From NCBI GenBank assembly GCA_963718915.1, contig CAVRAI010000015.1:167812-231811 (forward strand): a stretch of DNA of 64,000 bases, in the 5' to 3' direction. Below are positions 2,241-61,004 of this stretch, piece by piece. The DNA is from an uncultured Chloroflexia bacterium. Lineage in GTDB: Bacteria; Chloroflexota; Ktedonobacteria; Ktedonobacterales; JADMIN01. The position numbers were made by a program, and so were the translations under genes. Position 1 is the first letter of the stretch; each line of letters begins with the position of its first letter. The notes under the pieces were generated by a model. That model did no database searches. It was not told where the DNA came from and saw nothing but the letters and a program-made list of their open reading frames with translations.

Positions 2241-2636
2241 CTAGCGCACTTTCGACGTGTTTAGCCCCACGGCTTCGACAATAAGTGCCTGCAACGCGGC
2301 CTCATCGACCCTGGCGCCTTCCTGGAAATCGATAGCGCGAACGGTATTGCTATCGAGGCGCGTATTGAAGAGCTTCTCCGGATCCTTCATTTGAGCGCCT
2401 TTGGGGAACGTCAATCTCACAGCATGCTTGAGCGTATCAGCCACACATATCGTTCCATTGTGGGACCACACGGGAACCCCTTCGGGTCTGGAGGGCTTTT
2501 TCCATTTCACTTCTTCAACCACGGCAGGGTCGGCTTCCTTGATCAACGCACGCAGTTGTGACAGTTTCGCACCTCGCCAATCACTTGATTTCTTAATGAT
2601 GTCGTCTATCTGTTGAGAGGCGGGTTTGTCTTCCAT
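2241..2636 (-). CDS. DUF1801 (YdhG-like) domain protein
   Basis: 131 aa with WKKPSRPEGVPVWSHNG...RLTFPKGA pattern typical of DUF1801. Confidence 0.6.
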   Translation of the reverse strand: MEDKPASQQIDDIIKKSSDWRGAKLSQLRALIKEADPAVVEEVKWKKPSRPEGVPVWSHNGTICVADTLKHAVRLTFPKGAQMKDPEKLFNTRLDSNTVRAIDFQEGARVDEAALQALIVEAVGLNTSKVR

Positions 2637-4113: not shown

Positions 4114-5904
4114 ATGGCGGGGATGGCGAGTCGTAGCGCATATACGACACCGAGTAAGCCGGGAAATTCGCCGTGGCCTTCAGGCTACGGCGGGCTGGGT
4201 AGCGATCACAGGATCACGTATCGTATGGCAATTTTCTGGCCGACTGGAACACAGGAACAGGTGCGCGCGGGCGAGGCGTTGCGACGCGCGCTCAGCTCCG
4301 CAGTGACGCTCATCGGGGGTGGCGCGGGCATCCTGGCGCTCGACGATACCGGCGTCGCGGAGGAATCGGGAAGCGGCGTCGCGCAACGGGATGGCGAGGT
4401 AACCGTGCTTGCCTATGGCACCCGGCTGGAGGCGGCGCTGAGCCTGGTCAACCGGCTGGGCGCCGACGCGATTCCCCTGCCGATGGATGGGCGCCCGCGC
4501 GTGAGTGTGCTACCGGAATACTGGGGCGGCGAGATCGCGACCCTGGCGCTGGCCGACGCCGACGGCGCGATTGGCGAAATCCACCTGCTCGGCCCGGCAG
4601 GCTTCTCCAGTTCCCGTCCGCTGGCCGATGCCCGCCGACGCCAGGCGCTGGTCAACGAACTGACGACGGTGATACGACTTCATCAGGAACGCAGCCGTCT
4701 GCAACAGGAAAATCGCCAGCTCAGTTCAATTCTCTACTTCAGCGGCGACGGCATTGTAACAGTAGACTCCGCACTCCGCATCACCGGCTTCAATCAGGCG
4801 ATGGAGATGATGACCGCCTGGCACCCCCATGAGGCGATGGGCAAGTTCTACTACGATGTCCTACGCCCCCACGACCCGCAAGGCAAGCCGCTCGGCCTCG
4901 ACCGCGACCCGCTGCTGCTGGCGATCTCCAGCGGGCGAACGGCGCTCAACCGCGAGCTGATCCTGCTGACCCGTGACGGCCAGCGTGTCAATGTCTCGGT
5001 GACGGCGGCGGCCTATCAGGCAGCGCAGGGCCAGCCGATGGGAGGCGTGCTCAACGTGCGCGACATCACCCGCACGCGCGAAGCCGAAGAATTGCGCAGC
5101 ACCTTCGTCTCGGTCGTCTCGCACGAGTTGCAGACGCCGATTGCCATTATCAAGGGGTACGCCTCGACACTGGCGCGCGCGGATGCTCGCTGGGACGCCG
5201 AGGCGCTCCGCGAGCGGCTGCACGCCATCGAGGAGGAGGCCGACCGGCTCAACCATCTGGTGGCCAACGTGATGTATGCCTCACGCATCCAGGCTGGTGG
5301 GCTGACGATGGAGCGCGGCGAACTCGATCTCTCGGAGATGACCCGGTCGGTGGTGCGACGTTTCCTCGCGCGCAGCCCGGATCGCAAAATCTCGGTGCGG
5401 TTCCCGGCGGAGATGCCGCTGCTCTATGCGGATCGCGGGCGCATCGAGGAGGTGCTGCTCAATCTGCTGGATAACGCGGTCAAGTATTCACAGCGGGGGC
5501 TGGATATCCGCGTGCGCGGGCAGGTGACCGACGATGAGGTGATCGTCAGCGTCACCGACGCTGGACAGGGCATCCCGCTCCGCGAGCAGGAACGCATCTT
5601 CGAGCGCTTCCAGCAGCTCGACAATTCGGCCAGTCGGCGCGCGGCGGGCGCGGGCCTGGGCCTCTACATCTGCCGCGCCATCGTGGAGGCGCATGGTGGG
5701 CGCATCTGGGTGCAGAGCGAACTGGGCGCTGGTTCGACCTTCTTCTTCAGTCTGCCGCGCAGCGAGAAGCCGCAATTTCCGGTGGTGCTCTTCGGCGCGG
5801 CGCGTGAGACGCAGCATACACACGAAAACCGGGCGGATGGCGTTGCGGGCGCGACAGACGAGTTAGACGCGCTAGAGGAGTCGGATGATGGAACAGGGGT
5901 TTGA
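4114..5904 (+). CDS. Sensor histidine kinase (GAF/PAS-like N-terminus, HisKA, HATPase_c); resembles the KdpD catalytic portion
   Basis: H-box [10 protein letters not shown]-box [13 protein letters not shown]-boxes DAGQGIP and GAGLGL. Start uncertain (alternative ATG 4225). Confidence 0.8.
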
Positions 5905-25763: not shown

Positions 25764-25774
25764 CAGCGCCTCCT

Positions 25775-25833
25775 AGCCCGCGCAGGCGGGCTTTGCGGCC
25801 AACGGCCCGTAGGCGCGGCTTTAGCCGCCAGCC
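25775..25833. repeat. Intergenic double-hairpin repeat, family R1, copy a
   Basis: agcccgcGCAGgcgggct...gcggcTTTAgccgccagcc. Similar copies at 27137-27198, 29866-29933, 50797-50864, and inverted at about 50678-50750. Confidence 0.85.
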
Positions 25834-25852
25834 ATTGTGGCGAGGATGAATC

Positions 25853-27025
25853 ATGAGCAACAATCTCTATTTCACCGATGAACACGAGATGTTCCGCCAG
25901 ACGGTGCGGCGCTTTGTGGACCAGGAGATCAATCCCCATGTGGACGAGTGGGAGGAGGCGGGCATCTGGCCTGCGCATGAACTCTTCGCCAAAATGGGGC
26001 CGCTCGGCTTCCTCGGCCTGACCTACCCCGAAGAATACGGCGGCCAGGGACTCGACTTCTGGTACACCACCGTCTTCTGCGAGGAGTTGGCGCGCATCAA
26101 CTGCGCGGGTGTCCCGATGGGCATCTCGGTACACACCGATATGTGTACGCCCGCACTGGCACACCACGGCTCGCATGAGTTGAAGAAACTGTTTCTGGAG
26201 CCGAGTATTCGCGGCGACATGGTCGGCTGCATCGGCGTGACTGAGCCGGACGCTGGGTCGGATGTCGCGGCGATTCGCACGCGCGCTGAATCCGATGGCG
26301 ACGACTGGGTGATTACCGGGCGCAAGCTCTTTATCACCAACGGCACGCAGGCCGACTGGGTCTGTCTGCTGGCGCGCACCAGTGATGAAGGCGGCTTTCG
26401 CGGCATGTCGCTGATTATGGTTCCAACGAAGACGCCGGGCTTCACGGTCAGCCGCAAATTGCGCAAACTGGGCAACTGGTCGAGCGATACGGCGGAACTC
26501 ATCCTGGATGGCGTGCGCGTGCCGAAGTCCAACACCATCGGCGCAGAGGGGATGGGCTTCATCCTCCAGATGCAGCAGTTCCAGCGCGAGCGGCTCGTCG
26601 GCGCGATCCTCGCCTGCAACCAGTCGGAGCGTATCGTCCGCGACACCATCGCCTATACCCGCGAGCGCCAGACCTTCGGCCAGCCGCTGATCGACAACCA
26701 GGTGATCCACTTCCGCATGTGCGAGCTGCTGACCGAGATCGAGCTGCTGCGTCAGTTGAACTACCACTGCGTCCGCATGATGGTGGCGGGGCAGGATGTG
26801 ACGCGCGAGGCGTCGATGGCGAAGCTGAAGGCGGGGCGGCTTGCCCGCGAGGTGGCCGATAGCTGCCTGCAATATTATGGCGGCATGGGCTATATGGAGG
26901 AGACGCCGATCTCGCGCGCCTTCCGCGACTCGCGGCTGCTCTCGATTGGCGCGGGCGCCGACGAGGTGATGCTGGGCATCATCGCCAAGCTCGAAGGCAT
27001 TCTTCCGGGCAAGAAGAAGAACTAG
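25853..27025 (+). CDS. Acyl-CoA dehydrogenase (isovaleryl-/citronellyl-CoA dehydrogenase type)
   Basis: 390 aa. GVTEPDAGSDVA and YYGGMGY motifs. Confidence 0.9.
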   Translation: MSNNLYFTDEHEMFRQTVRRFVDQEINPHVDEWEEAGIWPAHELFAKMGPLGFLGLTYPEEYGGQGLDFWYTTVFCEELARINCAGVPMGISVHTDMCTPALAHHGSHELKKLFLEPSIRGDMVGCIGVTEPDAGSDVAAIRTRAESDGDDWVITGRKLFITNGTQADWVCLLARTSDEGGFRGMSLIMVPTKTPGFTVSRKLRKLGNWSSDTAELILDGVRVPKSNTIGAEGMGFILQMQQFQRERLVGAILACNQSERIVRDTIAYTRERQTFGQPLIDNQVIHFRMCELLTEIELLRQLNYHCVRMMVAGQDVTREASMAKLKAGRLAREVADSCLQYYGGMGYMEETPISRAFRDSRLLSIGAGADEVMLGIIAKLEGILPGKKKN

Positions 27026-27060
27026 GGATAACGGCTGTAGGGGCGCTTTCGTGTAAGATG

Positions 27061-27259
27061 GGCGCGCCGCAGGCTGAAGCCCTACGGCTAATCCTGGCCT
27101 TTCGGCGCCGTAGGCGATGGCGAGCATGCTTGTAGCAGCCCGCGCAGGCGGGCTTTGCGGATGCGCAGCATCCCTTAGGCGCGGCTTCAGCCGCCAGCGC
27201 TAATCTGGTCGTTCCAGCATTGCGTAAGATTAGCCGCGGCATTCATGCCGCGAAGGTGG
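27061..27259. repeat. Composite repeat locus: R3 (27061-27096) + R1 (27137-27198) + R4 (27228-27259)
   Basis: Each module recurs elsewhere in the window (see findings). Confidence 0.8.
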
Positions 27260-27375
27260 ATTATCACTCACCTTGCCCTGTTTGCCGCGAACCCGGACTA
27301 TTATCATACTCGCCAGCACCGGGCGTGTCTGGTTCCTCTCTTCCAGTGGGGGAGGGGTTAGGTGAGGGGGTAGTC

Positions 27376-28737
27376 ATGCTGCGCATCGGCTCCGCTGAGG
27401 GATTCTATGGCGACGACGTGACGCGCGCCCTGCCGATGATCGAGGGCGGGCATGTCGATGTCGTCTGCTTCGAGGCGCTCTCGGAACTGACGCTGGCCAT
27501 CTTGCGGCGTGACCAGATGCGCGACCCTACGCGCGGCTATACTCGTGACATTGACGTGATCGCCGAGCGTATCCTCCCGCTGGCCTTCGCACGCAAAATC
27601 CCGCTCATCACCAATGGCGGCGGCCTCAATCCCACAGGCGCGGCGGAACGCGTGCGGGCGACAGCGAAACGTCTGGGGCTGGACGGCCTGAAAGTCGCGA
27701 CTGTCACTGGCGACGATGTGCTGCTACGCTTGAGTGAGCTGGTAGCGGGTGGCGAGCCGTTGGCCAACATCGAGACGGGCGAGCCGCTGACACTCTCCGG
27801 CCCGCCCATTGTCACGGCCAACGCCTATCTGGGCGCGCTCCCCATCGCCGAGGCGCTGCGTCAGGGCGCCGATATCGTCATCGCCGGGCGCGTGGCCGAC
27901 CCGTGCCTCTACCTCGCGCCGATGCTGCAACGCTTCGGCTGGGCGGCGGACGACTGGAATCGGCTGGCCAGCGGCATCATCTGTGGCCATCTGCTCGAAT
28001 GCACCGGGCAGGTGGTCGGCGGCAACAGTCTGGCGCTGCTGGACGAGATGACGCCCGCCGCGCTCGCGCATCCCGGCTATCCCATCGCCGAGGTCGAGGA
28101 CGATGGCGGCTTTGTCGTCACCAAAACGCCGGGAACACCGGGGCGTGTCAGCGTCGAGACAGTCAAGGAGCAGCTGCTCTACGAGATGCACGATCCGGCG
28201 GCCTACATCACGCCCGATGTCGTCGCCGACGTGACGACGCTCCACCTCAGCGACGATGGCCTCGACCGCGTGCGTGTCACGGGCGTGAGCGGGCATCCGC
28301 GTACCGACTCACTCAAGGTGAATATCGCCCGGTTGGAGGGCTACAGCCGCGAGTTGCTCTTTCTGCTGGGCTGGCCCACCGTCTGGCGTAAAGAAGAGCA
28401 GTTGCGCGGCATGCTGGCCGAGGCATGGCAGGGGCTGGCGATCACGCGCGTCGAGTACACGCATCCGGGACTCGATAGCCTCTATGGACCGCTGGAGCCG
28501 CCGCCCGCTGATCCGCTGGAGCTGGTAGCGCGCGTCATGTTCACGGCCAACGACCAGGAGACGCTGAAGACGGCGGTGCGTCGCGCGATGGCGCTGGGCC
28601 TGTCTGGCCCGGCGGGGATGTCGGTCTCGGGCACGTCGGTGGGCGCCGACCCGCGCCCACTGCTGGGACTCTGGCCCGCGCTAGTGCGTCGCGAGCTGAT
28701 CGAGCCGAGGATTCACGTTGAGGTGAGGGAGGTATAA
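27376..28737 (+). CDS. AtuA-like acyclic terpene utilisation protein (DUF1446)
   Basis: MLRIGSAEGFYGDD...FEALSELTLAIL...ANAYLGA...GHLLECTGQ typical of DUF1446. ATG 27376; the track start 27220 runs through repeats. Confidence 0.8.
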   Translation: MLRIGSAEGFYGDDVTRALPMIEGGHVDVVCFEALSELTLAILRRDQMRDPTRGYTRDIDVIAERILPLAFARKIPLITNGGGLNPTGAAERVRATAKRLGLDGLKVATVTGDDVLLRLSELVAGGEPLANIETGEPLTLSGPPIVTANAYLGALPIAEALRQGADIVIAGRVADPCLYLAPMLQRFGWAADDWNRLASGIICGHLLECTGQVVGGNSLALLDEMTPAALAHPGYPIAEVEDDGGFVVTKTPGTPGRVSVETVKEQLLYEMHDPAAYITPDVVADVTTLHLSDDGLDRVRVTGVSGHPRTDSLKVNIARLEGYSRELLFLLGWPTVWRKEEQLRGMLAEAWQGLAITRVEYTHPGLDSLYGPLEPPPADPLELVARVMFTANDQETLKTAVRRAMALGLSGPAGMSVSGTSVGADPRPLLGLWPALVRRELIEPRIHVEVREV

Positions 28738-28816
28738 AGAGCGAAGGTGGTGGTAGGAGCCGTTTCACGGCATGATGTCGTTTTAGAAATTGCGACGGAG
28801 ACGGGCATTGCGGTGG

Positions 28817-29040
28817 GGCGAGGCAAGCCGTAGCGTTCACGTTACGGCGAATGGGCTGGGGATGCGGGAAATTCGCCGGAGCATTATGAACTTTCACTTT
28901 TTACCCCGAACACGGCGCGTTGTGGCGCGCGAGGCAGGCCGTAGCGTTTACGCTACGGCGAATGGAGGAGTGATCCGGAAGGGGAAAATTCGCCGGGGCA
29001 TTCATGCTCTGGCACGCGCACCCCAGCACGCTGTTCGGAG
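28817..29040. repeat. Two tandem units (about 110-nt period) of repeat family R2
   Basis: Unit 1 at 28817-28891 and unit 2 at 28927-29006. Both have a gccgtagcgTT(C/T)Acg(t/c)tacggc hairpin, then gaatgg...ggg(a)aaattcgccgg(a/g)gcatt(a/c)atg. Confidence 0.85.
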
Positions 29041-29090
29041 GTATTTCTTAACGTTCATGAACCGCCAGCGTCTAAGTGGAGAGATTGCCA

Positions 29091-29423
29091 ATGCCCAACG
29101 ATAACACCACACTCCGCCGCGTCTACGAGCTTGCCTATGGGCGCGCGGGCGACAAGGGCAACATTGCCAATGTCAGCGTCATCGCGCGCTCGTCCGCCGC
29201 GTATACTGAACTCAAAGAGAAGCTGACGGCGGAGCGCGTGCGGGCGCATCTCGGCCCCATCGTGCGCGGACGGGTCGAGCGATACGCGCTGGACAACATC
29301 GCGGCGCTGAACTTCGTGCTCTATGATGCGCTAGATGGCGGCGCGACACGCTCGCTACGGCTGGATGCGCTCGGCAAATCGCTGGCGGGCGCGGTGCTCT
29401 ATATGCCAGTTGATCCGGCGTGA
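29091..29423 (+). CDS. Small AtuA-associated protein (usual about 100-aa partner of DUF1446 genes)
   Basis: LRRVYELAYGRAGDKGNIANVSVIA... Position directly after the AtuA-like gene. Confidence 0.55.
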   Translation: MPNDNTTLRRVYELAYGRAGDKGNIANVSVIARSSAAYTELKEKLTAERVRAHLGPIVRGRVERYALDNIAALNFVLYDALDGGATRSLRLDALGKSLAGAVLYMPVDPA

Positions 29424-29451
29424 GGCCACTCAGAACTATTCGAGGCAACCG

Positions 29452-29784
29452 ATGGATTTTGAAACGTATCGTCAGGATGTCTTTCGCACCGTCCGCCCGG
29501 AGACGCCCGAACGCGAGCGGCTGTTGATCGCCGCGCTGGGGCTGTGCGGCGAGTCGGGTGAGGTGGCGGAAAACGTCAAGAAGGCGCTTTTCCAGGGGCA
29601 TGCGCTGGAGACGAGCGCGCTCCGCGATGAGTTAGGCGACGTCCTCTGGTACTTCGTCTTTCTCTGCGAGACCGTGGGTCTGACCGTCGAGGAGGTGATG
29701 GAGGCGAATGTCGCCAAGCGGCGCAAGCGCTACCCCGACGGCTTCAGCAGCGAGCGCAGCAAGCAACGCGAGGATACAAAGTAA
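29452..29784 (+). CDS. MazG-like nucleotide pyrophosphohydrolase (single-domain)
   Basis: GLCGESGEVAENVKK...ELGDVLWY EExxE/D-type MazG motifs. Confidence 0.7.
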   Translation: MDFETYRQDVFRTVRPETPERERLLIAALGLCGESGEVAENVKKALFQGHALETSALRDELGDVLWYFVFLCETVGLTVEEVMEANVAKRRKRYPDGFSSERSKQREDTK

Positions 29785-29793
29785 ATGCAGCAA

Positions 29794-29933
29794 TTTCGCG
29801 GCATTCATGCTGCGGCTAACCCGACCCGTACGATATATGCCTCCTTGATAGGTGGCGGGTGTGGGGAGCCTGCGAAGGCAGGCTTTGTGGCCGAACGAAG
29901 TGAGGTCATTGAGGCGCGGTTTTAACCGCCAGC
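29794..29933. repeat. Repeat locus: inverted R4 (29794-29821) + R1 copy c (29866-29933)
   Basis: tttcgcggcattcatgctgcggctaacc is the reverse complement of the 27228 module. The R1 copy carries compensatory stem changes. Confidence 0.8.

Positions 29934-30808: not shown

Positions 30809-30812
<4 letters not shown>
30000..30812 (+). CDS. Enoyl-CoA hydratase/isomerase (methylglutaconyl-/isohexenylglutaconyl-CoA hydratase position)
   Basis: RLNRPDARNAL, FCAGGDL, GAALGGGLGL crotonase motifs. GTG start. Confidence 0.85.
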
Positions 30813-32923
<2,111 letters not shown>

Positions 32924-33076
32924 GCATTCACACCGAGCCGATTCAGCGGTTACGCGCAGTCTGGCCAGTTTCGCTTCGCTTCACCGTCACTTTCTTCCAA
33001 CCATAACCGTAGAACGGGTATATAGCGCACATCTGCTGGGTATCTCTGTACGTCAGGATGAACGGAGGTCGCCGCC

Positions 33077-40314: not shown

Positions 40315-40590
40315 GGCGCGCCGCAGGCCGAAGCCCCGCAGCTAACCCTGTTTGCTCGGTACCGATGTAGATGCTGAGAGGGAGCGCGTTGGACGCGATT
40401 AGCCGCAGCATTTACGAACATTTAGCATGAACCCCGTACAGCGTGCTGGGGTGAGCGTGCCGGAGCCTGCAAGCACATGGGCTGGAGAGGCGGGAAATTC
40501 GCCGTAGCGTTCACGCTCCGGTCTGCCTCGCCTGCCACGACGCGCGGTGTTCGGCGCACAAATCAAAAGTACATTATGCCGCGAAGGTGG
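40315..40590. repeat. Composite/nested repeat locus: R3 (40315-40350), then split R4 halves (40397-40413 and 40572-40590) flanking an inverted R2 copy (about 40438-40532)
   Basis: Direct sequence comparison with 27061-27259 and 28817-29040. Confidence 0.75.
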
Positions 40591-40610: not shown

Positions 40611-40658
40611 TCGCGAAAAACACAAAACGCCGTCGGAATTATCTCCCGACGGCGTTTT
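40611..40658 (-). terminator. Rho-independent terminator downstream of tRNA-Val
   Basis: Perfect 13-bp stem aaaacgccgtcgg/ccgacggcgtttt with a 9-nt loop. On the minus strand it is followed by ttttgtgttttt. Confidence 0.65.
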
Positions 40659-40681: not shown

Positions 40682-40758
40682 TGGTGGGCGATACAGAACT
40701 CGAATCTGTGACCTCCACGATGTCAACGTGGCGCTCTAACCAACTGAGCTAATCGCCC
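40682..40758 (-). tRNA. tRNA-Val (anticodon GAC), CCA encoded
   Basis: Hand-folded cloverleaf: acceptor gggcgat/atcgccc, D stem gctc/gagc, anticodon stem ccacg/cgtgg with loop ttGACat, T stem acaga/tctgt with loop ttcgagt. Confidence 0.9.
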
Positions 40759-49304: not shown

Positions 49305-49426
49305 GGGGCGCCGCGCCGTGGCCTAAAGCGCCACGGCTAATCCTGGTGCAACCATTCCCGCTTGCCATCGGAAGAGAGCGCCGAACCAGCGGGGTTAGCC
49401 GCAGGTCTTCAGCCTGCGGCGTGGGG
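49305..49426. repeat. Inverted pair of repeat family R3
   Basis: Forward copy at 49305-49346, ending ...gccacggctaatcctgg. Inverted copy at 49393-49426, ggttagccgcaggtcttcagcctgcggcgtgggg. Compare 27061-27096 and 40315-40350. Confidence 0.75.
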
Positions 49427-49527: not shown

Positions 49528-50676
49528 ATGGCCAACGCCCTGCCGATCTTTGTCAGCCACAGCCACGAGGATGCCGCCTTCTGCCAGGCGCTGGTGACGG
49601 CGCTCCGTGGCGCGGGCGCCGATGTCTGGTATGACGAGCACAATCTAGGCGCGGGCCATCTGATGGACGTCATTCAGCAGGAGCTTGATCGCCGCAAAAT
49701 CTTCATTGTCATCCTCTCGAAGCGCGCCTTCGCCTCCAAATGGGTCAAGCGTGAGACGGGCTGGGCATACTCGCTCTACGACCGCGACCCCACCCGCGTC
49801 ATCTTGCCCGTGACGGCTGCCACCATCGAGCGCGACGACTTTAGCGGCGCGACCGGCTGGCTCTACCTGGAGGAGTTCAAGCGGATCGAGGCGCCAGGCT
49901 ACCAGCCGTACCCGCAGGCCGAGGCGGTGGGCCGCGTGCTCCATGCACTTGCGCTGACCCCAGCAGGCGAGGCGCCTGCCCCAACTGCTCCACAGCCGAG
50001 CGAGAGTGTTGACGACCTACTGACCAAGGGCAAAGCGCTCATGGCACAGCACAAGGTGACAGAACCGATGCGGTTCTTTGAACGGGCCACCGAGATTGAT
50101 CCAAACAATTTCGACGCCTGGGCAAACCTGGGTCGTCTCTATCTGTGGGACGGACAGACGCAGCGGGGGCTTGATGCCATTGACCGGGCACTCACCTTGC
50201 GTGACAACGATCCCTATATCTGGTTTTATCGAGGGCAGAGTATGTTCGGTCTGCAACGCTATGAGGAGGCGCTCGCGTCGTTTGACCATGCACTAGCCCT
50301 GAACCTAGAGGCTGAAGAGGCTCCGAAACACCCGTTTTCCCGTGTCTATCTCTGGTACCACAAGGCTATTGCTTATGAGAAGTTGCAGCGCTACGAAGAG
50401 GCTTTGGATGCTTACGATCGCCAGCTGGCGAGCGATGACCACTACCGAGTTGACAATAGGCTTTGGTTCGGCAAAGGGCGTGCGCTCATAAGCTTAAGGC
50501 GCTACAAAGAGGCGCTCGAAGCTATCGAGAACGCGAGTCGGGGTCTGTTTCTGTATCCCGGGGCCGACAAGCTAGAATTAGAATACTACCGAGACAGAGC
50601 AATTGCTCTGCGCGGATTAGGACGAACTCGTGAAGCGAAGGAGGCTGAGGCGCGTGCGAAGGCACTGGGCGGGTAG
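49528..50676 (+). CDS. TIR-domain protein with C-terminal TPR repeats
   Basis: IFVSHSHEDAAF...IFIVILSKRAFASKWVKRE (TIR, conserved Glu present). At least 5 TPR-like repeats (...YEEALASFDHAL...YEEALDAYDRQL...YKEALEAIENA). GAGGAGG RBS. Confidence 0.8.
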   Translation: MANALPIFVSHSHEDAAFCQALVTALRGAGADVWYDEHNLGAGHLMDVIQQELDRRKIFIVILSKRAFASKWVKRETGWAYSLYDRDPTRVILPVTAATIERDDFSGATGWLYLEEFKRIEAPGYQPYPQAEAVGRVLHALALTPAGEAPAPTAPQPSESVDDLLTKGKALMAQHKVTEPMRFFERATEIDPNNFDAWANLGRLYLWDGQTQRGLDAIDRALTLRDNDPYIWFYRGQSMFGLQRYEEALASFDHALALNLEAEEAPKHPFSRVYLWYHKAIAYEKLQRYEEALDAYDRQLASDDHYRVDNRLWFGKGRALISLRRYKEALEAIENASRGLFLYPGADKLELEYYRDRAIALRGLGRTREAKEAEARAKALGG

Positions 50677-50677
50677 A

Positions 50678-50864
50678 GGGTGCGGGCGGTTCAAACCGCG
50701 CCTCTTTGACCTCACTCCGTTTGGCCACAAAACCCGCCTGCGCGGGTTTCAGAGACCCGCTCACCATTGGATTCATCATCAGGACAGGTTCTGGGGAGTC
50801 CGCGCAGGCGGACTTCGTGGCGGAGCGGAGCGAGGCCATTTAGGCGCGACTTCAGTCGCCAGCC
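50678..50864. repeat. Inverted pair of R1 repeats directly after the TIR-TPR stop codon
   Basis: Copy at about 50678-50750 is the reverse complement of the R1 consensus; 50797-50864 is a forward copy. Confidence 0.8.
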
Positions 50865-50899: not shown

Positions 50900-51337
50900 T
50901 TATCCGCCCGCGCTCCCCGCGTCGCTGTCGGCAGGCGGCGTTTCGGGCATGGCGGCGGCGCGGATGGCGGCCAGTAGCTCGGCAATGCGTACCGGCTTGT
51001 CGAGATAGGCGGCTGCGCCCGCGTTGAGCGCGAGCACCTTCACATTAGGGTCGGCGTAGGCGCTGAGGATGATCACTTTGGTATCGGGCAGCAGCGCGCG
51101 CAGGTCTTTGAGCACCAACCGTTTCGAGATGAAGCGCGTGTCTCCGGTGATGATGTCCATATCCAGCAGCAGCACATCCGGGCACAGGCGCTCGACCGCC
51201 TCGATGACCTCGCTCCCGCTGGCGGCCTCGCCGACAACGCTCATATCCGACTGCCTCGCGAGCGCGCGCCGCAGAATGGCGCGCATGGCCTGCGTGCCCT
51301 CGGCAATCAGTATGGAAATGGTGGCGTTCTCGCTCAT
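50900..51337 (-). CDS. Stand-alone response-regulator receiver (CheY-like)
   Basis: ISILIAEG...DVLLLDMD...VIILSAY...YLDKPV. No output domain. Confidence 0.75.
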   Translation of the reverse strand: MSENATISILIAEGTQAMRAILRRALARQSDMSVVGEAASGSEVIEAVERLCPDVLLLDMDIITGDTRFISKRLVLKDLRALLPDTKVIILSAYADPNVKVLALNAGAAAYLDKPVRIAELLAAIRAAAMPETPPADSDAGSAGG

Positions 51338-51385
51338 GGTCAACCAGACCTCATTAACGAATGCTCGTCTGCTGACCACATGATA

Positions 51386-60866: not shown

Positions 60867-61004
60867 CTGTCTGTAGCGTAAACGCTACGGCGCGCGCACC
60901 AAACCGCAACAACCCAGACGGACTTGGTGTGAGCGGAGAGGCTACAGCGAATTTCCCGTCTGCATCATTTGCCCATTCGCCGTAGCATTTACGCTTCGGC
61001 CTGC
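60867..61004. repeat. Inverted pair of R2 hairpin modules
   Basis: Forward module at 60867-60897, ctgtagcgtaaacgctacgg. Inverted module at 60972-61004, cccattcgccgtagcatttacgcttcggcctgc. gcgaatttccc at 60947-60957. Confidence 0.7.

Follow-up and report, generated by a model that had tools for sequence, protein, structure and literature searches.

A 64,000-nt stretch of DNA from an uncultured Chloroflexia bacterium (GenBank assembly GCA_963718915.1, contig CAVRAI010000015.1, positions 167,812 to 231,811; hereafter the window) carries several copies of a short repeat, named here R1, whose hairpin stems differ from copy to copy while their pairing is preserved. This raises the question of whether R1 is a structure kept by selection at each locus or a mobile repeat. 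Our analysis makes it very likely that R1 is a repetitive extragenic palindrome (REP)-type element of Ktedonobacterales-like Chloroflexota, with a small IS200-like Y1/HUH tyrosine transposase of the REP-associated tyrosine transposase (RAYT) kind as its cognate protein. As such, it is a new REP family of the known REP/RAYT kind and not a new kind of element.

The window contains exactly five R1 copies (Table 1). All five had been listed in the first-pass annotation of the sequence, at coordinates within 1-4 nt of ours, and the stem variants it reported are all correct, each being Watson-Crick compensated. A covariance model of R1 scores these copies at 63.6-78.6 bits, the best other match in the window reaching 14.8 bits. 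Degenerate patterns for the two conserved halves of the repeat each gave five matches in the window, where dinucleotide-preserving shuffles predict 0.14 and 0.01.

The repeat had been described as a double hairpin; the unit in fact has three, the variable middle segment being a covarying hairpin too. Anchored profiles of 169 copies delimit an R1 unit of 56-68 nt with hairpins H1, H2, and H3, the 5' edge being an A five bases ahead of GCGNAGGC and the 3' edge CGCC-AGC. H1 has a 7-bp stem and a GNAG loop, H3 has a 5-bp stem (GCGNN/NNCGC) and a TTYA loop, and H2, with a stem of 3-10 bp, is the source of all length variation. H3 is preceded by YAGG in 134 of the 169 copies and by GTAGG in 14, and the base before the A of H1 is mostly C. 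A pyrimidine-rich 5' flank (TCTGS or TCCY) is weak (48% of copies versus 7% far upstream) and may be a target preference or a frayed end of R1. ViennaRNA predicted the three-hairpin fold for four of the five window copies, and the same three helices were returned by RNAalifold run unguided on the R1 alignment. Because shuffled GC-rich sequence folds well too, the folding z-scores of the window copies are only -1.1 to -2.3, so that stability alone is not significant and the structural evidence is covariation, not energy. Solo modules made of H1 or H3 only are rare (8 of 324 loose H1 matches fold) and R1 is therefore a coherent unit. A single unit does not have terminal inverted repeats.

Other genomes, one per species, were scanned with a pattern in which the covarying positions were set to N and the 5' arm of H1 was left out. 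This revealed at least 112 R1 stretches in 33 assemblies (34 genomes including that of the window). Among the matches listed, the hosts bear Ktedonobacterales, Ktedonobacteria, 'Thermomicrobiales', Chloroflexia, or Chloroflexota names, with the exception of three metagenome-assembled genomes (MAGs) from Centralia labelled Proteobacteria. Typical R1 copies were seen in 'Proteobacteria bacterium Centralia_MAG_377/675' at loci L003, L015, L085, L088 (JAJPIU01), and L084 (JAJPKG01; L numbers are our locus labels), and these bins are probably mislabelled or contaminated, since every other R1 host belongs to the Chloroflexota. The same pattern matched at least 120 stretches in soil metagenomes, none in 2.9 million viral contigs, and gave no meaningful match in a plasmid collection.

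Covariation was assessed on an alignment of 150 distinct copies (A2). Standard pairs are formed in 96.6% of stem cells versus 85.8% after shuffling, and there are 280 double-change cells versus 73 +/- 12, about four times as many, a value reached in 0 of 500 shuffles. When the 3' partner is slid by 1-3 columns, only 5-32 double-change cells remain. Changes are found in all three helices: H1 pair 2 is GC in 110 copies and AU in 37, H1 pair 3 is CG in 97, UA in 38, and GC in 12, H2 pair 4 is CG in 66, GC in 40, and UA in 11, and H3 pair 5 is UA in 71, CG in 62, AU in 9, and GC in 3. H1 variants that could not have been selected by the search expression also form perfect hairpins, such as AAACCCAT/ATGGGTTT and GGACCCAC/GTGGGTC. 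With the terminal H1 pair set aside, G.T wobble cells are as rare as A.C cells (about 17 each), which fits a strand-symmetric Watson-Crick requirement and not an RNA made from one strand. Only three exact duplicates were found among the 169 copies; copies are diverse within genomes, and the same H1 and H3 types recur across many genomes in many combinations.

The cognate protein of RAYT or IS200-like type that the first-pass annotation had proposed to look for was found in related genomes and metagenomes, on which the transposase link rests, and not in the window itself. The IS200 and IS608 TnpA queries gave three matches (L103, L197, and L237) over 1.56 Mb of R1 loci, metagenome loci included, and these matches were validated by Pfam and NCBIfam. 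The three ORFs (open reading frames) score 60-68 bits with Pfam Y1_Tnp (PF01797, cut-off 23), and the HVHLL (HUH) motif and the catalytic Tyr of YIAxQ of the transposase align with IS608 TnpA. A database search with the repaired protein returned 649 homologs (E <= 1e-15), many of them intact at 140-150 aa, several from named Ktedonobacterales, and many labelled RayT in IMG. R1 also flanks the intact homologs P0121, P0197, and P0132 (145-149 aa), in L239, L241, L242, L245, L247, and L253; the L240 contig stops 18 nt inside the downstream copy. In total, the arrangement of a minus-strand R1, a gene for a Y1_Tnp protein of 145-150 aa, and a plus-strand R1 was found at five distinct loci (L103, L197, L237/L239, L241-246, and L247-254) on ten contigs, with no exception among those tested. 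This layout is that of a REPtron (REP + RAYT).

At the intact loci, the minus-strand copy ends 30-44 nt ahead of the transposase ATG, while the plus-strand copy begins at or overlaps the stop codon. This stop is the GTAG loop of H1 in L237/L239, a TAG whose last two bases open the AGTCCGC of H1 in L241, and a TAA whose last two bases open the AACCCGC of H1 in L247. No tnpB was found adjacent to the R1-flanked genes. P0197 is present in 6 contigs and P0132 in at least 8, from different samples, and each always has the same neighbouring genes (in contigs, not complete genomes); a single fixed gene context per transposase is what a RAYT would show, and a multicopy insertion sequence would not. 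The gene is present at only 3 of 232 R1 loci, and one genome (DATBTW) has both a dispersed R1 doublet (L013) and an R1-flanked transposase (L245).

The same geometry without the gene is seen in the doublets of R1. In the genomes, all 39 neighbour pairs within 400 nt are head-to-head, with the H1 ends inward and the H3-AGC ends outward, and with spacers of 10-226 nt. The covariance model adds about 9 head-to-head pairs, 3 tandem pairs involving truncated or weak copies, and 0 tail-to-tail pairs. In the independent metagenome set, 36 of 38 pairs are head-to-head and 0 are tail-to-tail, the other two ('tandem') being overlapping matches. About 45% of R1 copies sit in such inverted doublets. The two arms share the H1 type in only 2 of 39 doublets versus 25% expected, and partners are less alike (identity 0.74) than random copies of the same genome (0.79). 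A plausible reason for heterotypic arms would be that long perfect palindromes are unstable. The spacers are unrelated in sequence and length, sharing only short inverted termini (CCAGA...TCTGG or GGGA...TCCC). The idea that doublets arise by insertion on either side of a small palindromic target is unsupported, as inverted 5-mers or 6-mers are not in excess upstream of singletons (19 versus 23-24 in controls).

In the window, copies 4 and 5 form such a doublet, its H1 ends inward and its H3-AGC ends toward two convergent genes, with arms that differ in subtype and are 70% complementary. Copy 5 lies 5 nt past the stop codon of a TIR-TPR gene (Pfam TIR_2 and TPR matches), and copy 4 ends 36 nt from the stop-codon end of a convergent response-regulator gene (50900-51379, minus strand; Pfam Response_reg). 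The TIR-TPR ortholog in L017 is likewise followed by a head-to-head R1 doublet. TIR-domain proteins adjoin R1 doublets in three genomes (TIR-TPR at 49528-50676 of the window and at 1453-2484 of L017; TIR with FGE-sulfatase at 2605-4101 of L020). This proximity is probably a coincidence, because R1 is so common.

Comparison of orthologous sites indicates that R1 copies are gained, lost, and replaced in the atu operon. In the closest relative, L113, whose AtuD is 94% identical to that of the window, copy 1 is kept and 93% identical, its four substitutions all lying outside the stems. Copy 2 is absent from L113; some 97 nt of the window, R1 included, correspond to about 12 unrelated nt there, and these extra nt fall where L113 has the spacer between two inverted copies of another hairpin repeat. 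The copy 3 site carries a different H1 variant in L114 (49 bits) and a decayed copy in L115 (18 bits), and has no R1 in L117 and L118 (spacers of 16-111 nt). Outside this operon, the orthologous doublets of L004 and L022 differ at every variable stem position, always with compensation, within flanks that are 92% identical, and one R1 copy differs between L033 and L078 by a block, GGC-TTCA-GCC versus GAC-TTTA-GTC. These changes are too concerted for independent point mutation, and point to replacement or conversion by other members of the R1 family. Much of the compensatory difference between copies reflects sorting and exchange among variants that were already hairpin-competent, and not double mutations that occurred independently locus by locus.

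These results also bear on the earlier claim that R1 is a selected structure and not a recently copied element. The part that stood is that pairing is kept under drift across the 150 aligned copies and that the window copies are old and diverged, in a family with so few exact duplicates. What did not stand is the exclusion of copying, as R1 is also a dispersed repeat (at least 34 genomes) with turnover at orthologous sites and with a Y1 transposase flanked by R1 pairs. Indeed, R1 is both a selected structure and a copied element, and the five window copies are old, diverged passengers of the R1/transposase system.

The genomic context of R1 was examined using gene calls from a codon-usage ORF caller written for the analysis. 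A total of 150 of the 169 copies lie outside called genes. By context, 38 copies are convergent, 21 divergent, 37 co-directional in sense, and 28 co-directional in antisense (22 sense versus 12 antisense for singletons only). Convergent sites are thus in excess over divergent ones, but there is no orientation rule. Many copies fill short operon spacers, 8-23 nt past a stop codon and 16-36 nt ahead of the next ATG, with the ribosome-binding site directly after R1. The genes between R1 copies 0.5-3 kb apart are all housekeeping genes. Flanking direct repeats of at least 5 nt are not above chance at singletons or doublets, the only apparent repeat being the element's own AGC at both ends; a duplication of 2-3 nt is not strictly excluded. 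Based on the GC skew of 8-kb loci, a replication-strand bias is weak (t = -2.8, 37 versus 25) and opposite in sign to that of the window.

Copies 1-3 are internal to an atu/liu-type operon (window region 23.7-33 kb) encoding a carboxyltransferase, a cupin, AtuD, AtuA, a protein with an AtuA-ferredoxin domain, a MazG-like protein, an enoyl-CoA hydratase, and a biotin carboxylase. The best homologs of its AtuD are from Ktedonobacterales. Copy 1 lies between the cupin gene (stop 25763) and atuD (start 25853), copy 2 in the 350-nt atuD-atuA spacer between two hairpins of another family (27061-27100 and 27229-27256), and copy 3 after the MazG-like gene (end 29784) and ahead of the enoyl-CoA hydratase gene (start 30000). 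Most copies had been placed shortly after stop codons. This is correct for copy 1, at 11 nt past the cupin stop (given as 12 nt), and for the inverted copy behind the TIR-TPR gene, where the distance had been given as 2 nt, but not for copy 2, whose spacer is 350 nt long because atuA starts at ATG 27376 and not at TTG 27220. The longest AtuA ORF does open at the TTG; however, its Pfam match to AtuA does not start until residue 54, and the alignment with the L113 ortholog begins at ATG 27376 (MLRIGSAEGFYGDD). The ATG is the true start, and the 52 leading codons of the long ORF are spacer filled with repeats.

That R1 has no U-tract, as first noted, was borne out: no T-run follows any window copy, and a terminator scan picks up no R1 copy but finds a canonical U-tailed terminator behind a tRNA gene, so that the source organism does use such terminators. 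R1 as an intrinsic (Rho-independent) terminator was rejected on these grounds, and also for the absence of orientation bias and the location of several copies between co-transcribed operon genes. A miniature inverted-repeat transposable element (MITE) of a DDE transposon was rejected as well, since there are no terminal inverted repeats and no variable target-site duplication.

How the transposase would act on R1 can be proposed from the biochemistry of IS200/IS605 (IS608) TnpA and of E. coli TnpA-REP. By analogy, the protein would bind folded R1 hairpins on single-stranded DNA, and cut and rejoin nearby. Only variants with pairing stems would then be propagated or exchanged, which would yield the compensatory pattern. 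The strand-symmetric evidence favours such a DNA-level hairpin, read by the transposase on single-stranded DNA, over a strand-specific RNA, because R1 has no preferred orientation with respect to genes and G.T mismatches do not outnumber A.C mismatches. Enterobacterial REPs have been shown to act as barriers to 3'-5' exonucleases or as processing sites. The transcripts of operon-internal R1 copies probably do so in a secondary manner, modulating mRNA decay.

Several observations weigh against a REP/RAYT assignment of R1. No transposase was found in the 64-kb window, and nothing was found in the first 0.85 Mb of R1 loci by tblastn with the E. coli RAYT (a query that the NCBIfam RAYT model verifies at 179 bits) and with an HUH/Tyr expression. 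The ORFs of L103, L197, and L237 score 55-61 bits with the NCBIfam IS200/IS605 model (NF033573, cut-off 55), that is, at threshold, and only 20-24 bits with the RAYT equivalog (NF047646, cut-off 80). All three have disrupted frames: those of L103 and L197 shift at about residue 88, and that of L237 contains a 16-nt tandem duplication. Together with the scarcity of exact duplicates, this makes current activity no more than a possibility. At 56-68 nt and with three hairpins, the fixed unit differs from REPs, which are one hairpin of 20-40 nt, and the GTAG tag of the best-studied REP class (or CGTC) is mostly absent from the foot of its hairpins. Since the arms of doublets preferentially differ in subtype and their spacers are unrelated, the doublets are not copy-paste REPINs, the REP doublets known from Pseudomonas fluorescens. 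Finally, loops and linkers were fixed by the search pattern, and their conservation is not judgeable from this sample. It was also observed that the frame changes of L103 (~476-490) and L197 (~1564-1597) fall at the same place (about residue 88-92, before FFKWQGAY), through which intact homologs read; they could reflect parallel decay, an assembly error, or a conserved frameshift site.

One alternative is that an ordinary autonomous IS200-family insertion sequence has R1 pairs as its ends, with solo copies and doublets as purely parasitic deletion derivatives resembling MITEs or palindrome-associated transposable elements (PATEs). The protein does fit the IS200/IS605 model better than the RAYT model, the R1-tnpA-R1 unit of about 600 nt has the size of IS200, target-site duplications are lacking as in IS200/IS605, and doublets resemble the unit minus its gene. 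We nevertheless regard this as unlikely. The identical transposases in 6 and at least 8 contigs keep one neighbourhood and the full unit was not seen inserted anywhere else, while a gene at so few R1 loci implies hundreds of repeats per gene copy. In addition, IS200/IS605 ends are not mutual inverted repeats, whereas those formed by R1 are, and the doublet spacers are mutually unrelated and contain no recognisable gene remnant. A primarily functional RNA selected locus by locus (a terminator without a U-tract, a 3'-end stabiliser, or an intercistronic processing site) is very unlikely. Operon copies 8-23 nt past stops and about 20 nt before the next start must be transcribed, orthologous R1 is better conserved than the spacer around it (as in copy 1 versus L113, with no stem change), and REPs of E. 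coli stabilise upstream mRNA. However, the lack of orientation bias in the sense and antisense counts given above (37/28 overall, 22/12 for singletons), the equal intolerance of G.U and A.C, the low folding z-scores, and the presence of U-tailed terminators in the organism all speak against it, the same operon junction differs in occupancy among close relatives, and some operons lack R1 altogether. An RNA role would also leave the head-to-head rule and the transposase linkage unexplained.

Compensation could also arise without selection, if quasi-palindromes were perfected by intra-strand template switching and gene conversion, in which case pairing would be uninformative about function. Template-switch correction of quasi-palindromes is an established mutational mechanism, and orthologs do differ by blocks that match other variants (the L033/L078 block and the whole L004/L022 doublet), as conversion or replacement would produce. 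Such a process cannot, however, create shared loops, linkers, three ordered modules, and a fixed pair orientation across 34 genomes, nor does it explain the association with a transposase of a hairpin-binding class. It may contribute to stem maintenance without explaining everything, and as a full account it is extremely improbable. There is next to no chance that R1 is, or derives from, a repeat of clustered regularly interspaced short palindromic repeats (CRISPR), as solitary or degenerate units. This reading comes from Rfam RF01356 (CRISPR-DR28), whose 24-nt consensus GGCAAaGCCCGCCUGCGCGGGCuA is matched at 23 of 24 positions by the reverse complement of H1 plus linker, the best copy reaching 38.6 bits (gathering score 35) and the remaining four 24.8-34.1 bits. 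However, R1 does not form arrays (copies in the window start 1362, 2730, and 20930 nt apart), neighbours are in inverted and almost never in tandem orientation (no tandem full copies among pairs found by regular expression), and the match covers 24 of about 60 nt, one hairpin of three. Rfam-based annotations of the beta-proteobacteria Burkholderia and Acidovorax also list CRISPR-DR28 matches at isolated sites (PMC3521395, PMC4099980), so that this model seems to recognise GC-rich, REP-like hairpins in general and not CRISPR repeats specifically. No other Rfam family matched R1 at E < 0.01.

As a REP-type family, R1 is best compared with the REPtrons of E. coli, Pseudomonas, and Stenotrophomonas. 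Shared features are GC-rich short palindromes in many extragenic copies, more often convergent than divergent, without target-site duplications and frequently in inverted pairs, and an apparently single-locus gene for a Y1/HUH transposase with an inverted copy of the repeat on either side. Besides the differences in hairpin number and tag, the R1 transposase is nearer to IS200/IS608 TnpA than to the enterobacterial RAYT model, and its stop codon lies in or at H1. REPINs share the inverted doublets with short spacers and one exclusive orientation, but their arms are near-identical and the doublet is a copied unit, whereas R1 arms preferentially differ. Heterotypic inverted pairs and intergenic mosaics of several hairpin families are found in the bacterial interspersed mosaic elements (BIMEs) of E. 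coli, in which Y and Z REPs alternate; unlike in BIMEs, no conserved linker motifs were found between R1 arms, no site for integration host factor or gyrase is known, and no long tandem alternations were seen. With IS200/IS605 and their PATE/MITE derivatives, R1 shares the Y1_Tnp transposase, subterminal hairpins per unit in place of terminal inverted repeats, and the lack of target-site duplication, but its ends are inverted copies of each other, the gene appears to be single-locus, and tnpB is absent. In Chloroflexi, GTAG-23 REPs have been described from Thermomicrobium roseum and Roseiflexus castenholzii as mostly head-head dimers, often RAYT-linked, each a single GTAG-tagged hairpin of about 24 nt, and clustered in blocks at few loci in T. 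roseum (Di Nocera et al. 2013, PMC3733652). R1 differs from GTAG-23 as described in being dispersed, in its three hairpins, and in mostly having no GTAG. Our literature search found no paper that joins Ktedonobacter(ia) with REP or palindromic repeats or that describes the R1 family.

A bolder proposal goes further than the REP/RAYT assignment and is, in our opinion, rather unlikely: in the R1 system, Chloroflexota would have domesticated an IS200-type transposase independently, outside the RAYT groups described so far, with a three-hairpin recognition module and a strict head-to-head heterotypic pairing that denotes a host-level role and not simple parasitism. A possible role of this type for paired R1 would be a BIME-like binding site that organises DNA or insulates operon junctions. 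The stop codon within H1 could, in addition, couple expression of the transposase to the folding of its own repeat.

R1 reveals no new kind of system. It does explain a conspicuous intergenic class in poorly studied, mostly uncultured soil Ktedonobacterales-like Chloroflexota, and it adds a REP-transposase pair whose transposase sits nearer to IS200 than do classical RAYTs. The three-hairpin module should be useful for comparing how Y1 transposases read folded DNA, and the hundreds of compensated stem variants are a natural data set on the evolution of structure-dependent mobile repeats. For annotation, R1 hairpins should not be called CRISPR repeats (although CRISPR-DR28 fires on them), terminators, or novel small RNAs, and ORF callers extend start codons into R1-type spacers, as for AtuA, where automatic annotation would over-extend the gene (27220-27378).

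Table 1 Coordinates of R1 copies, transposase loci, and other features
Sequence	Feature	Position	Strand	Remarks
Window	R1 copy 1	25775-25832	+	Covariance model 78.6 bits; three-hairpin minimum-energy fold
Window	R1 copy 1, H1	25775-25792	+	AGCCCGC/GCAG/GCGGGCT
Window	R1 copy 1, H2	25797-25807	+	GGCC/AAC/GGCC
Window	R1 copy 1, H3	25815-25828	+	GCGGC/TTTA/GCCGC, then tail CAGC
Window	R1 copy 2	27137-27198	+	Covariance model 77.1 bits
Window	R1 copy 2, H1	27137-27154	+	
Window	R1 copy 2, H2	27159-27173	+	GGATGC/GCA/GCATCC
Window	R1 copy 2, H3	27181-27194	+	
Window	R1 copy 3	29867-29933	+	Covariance model 69.7 bits
Window	R1 copy 3, H1	29867-29884	+	AGCCTGC/GAAG/GCAGGCT
Window	R1 copy 3, H2 (long)	29887-29909	+	
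Window	R1 copy 3, H3	29916-29929	+	GCGGT/TTTA/ACCGC
Window	R1 head-to-head doublet	50682-50863	.	Arm, 48-nt unique spacer 50749-50796, arm
Window	R1 copy 4, doublet right arm	50797-50863	+	Covariance model 71.6 bits
Window	R1 copy 4, H1	50797-50814	+	AGTCCGC/GCAG/GCGGACT
Window	R1 copy 4, H3	50846-50859	+	GCGAC/TTCA/GTCGC
Window	R1 copy 5, doublet left arm	50682-50748	-	Covariance model 63.6 bits
Window	R1 copy 5, H1	50731-50748	-	Plus-strand coordinates
Window	R1 copy 5, H3	50686-50699	-	Plus-strand coordinates
L103	R1, Y1_Tnp gene, R1	197-254; gene; 777-834	R1 -; R1 +	
L197	R1, Y1_Tnp gene, R1	1209-1266; gene; 1706-1772	R1 -; R1 +	
L237	R1, Y1_Tnp gene, R1	1097-1171; gene; 1671-1737	R1 -; R1 +	
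L239	R1, gene, R1	119-185; 230-679; 669-743	R1 -; R1 +	
L241	R1, gene, R1	1048-1110; 1141-1581; 1580-1645	R1 -; R1 +	
L247	R1, gene, R1	1975-2043; 2079-2516; 2515-2582	R1 -; R1 +	
Window	CRISPR-DR28 match	25774-25797	-	Above gathering score (copy 1)
Window	CRISPR-DR28 match	27136-27159	-	
Window	CRISPR-DR28 match	50726-50749	+	
Window	CRISPR-DR28 match	50796-50819	-	
Window	Canonical intrinsic terminator	40624-40658	-	15-bp hairpin and T-run after tRNA-Val(GAC) 40682-40758 (-)
Window	Second repeat family	27061-27100; 27229-27256 (inverted); 29795-29822; 40315-40351; 49312-49346 and 49378-49421 (inverted pair)		
Window	Third repeat family	4157-4195; 28817-29025; 40470-40535; 60931-61004		28817-29025: two units 111 nt apart
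Window	Fourth hairpin	27335-27360		
L113	Fourth hairpin	2590-2615		Also in L033/L078, L114/L115, L046, L048

Other repeats were observed in the window. A second intergenic family consists of an imperfect 9-10 bp hairpin with a TGAA/TTCA loop followed by GCTAATCC, and also occurs in inverted pairs. One of its hairpins lies about 40 nt 5' of R1 copies 2 and 3, the position of a head-to-head partner. The R1 covariance model matches this family weakly (12.6 bits at 27066-27154, minus strand), and the family may be a distant relative of the H3 module. A third, multi-hairpin family reads GCCGTAGCG-TTCA-CGTTACGGC, then GAATGGGC...GGGAAATTCGCCGGAGCATTCATGC, and occurs in either orientation; its arms, up to 83 nt long, are 81% complementary between loci. 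A fourth recurrent hairpin, CCTCTCYCC...GGGGAGGGG, lies shortly before the AtuA start and, in other genomes, behind map. The commonest 8-mer upstream of R1 singletons is GAGGGGAG. Lastly, a CATCGT-type tandem repeat (32844-32933) at the 3' end of the biotin carboxylase/biotin carboxyl carrier protein gene (30809-32923) encodes the C-terminal tail PSSSSSSSSSSSSSPSPSPSS.

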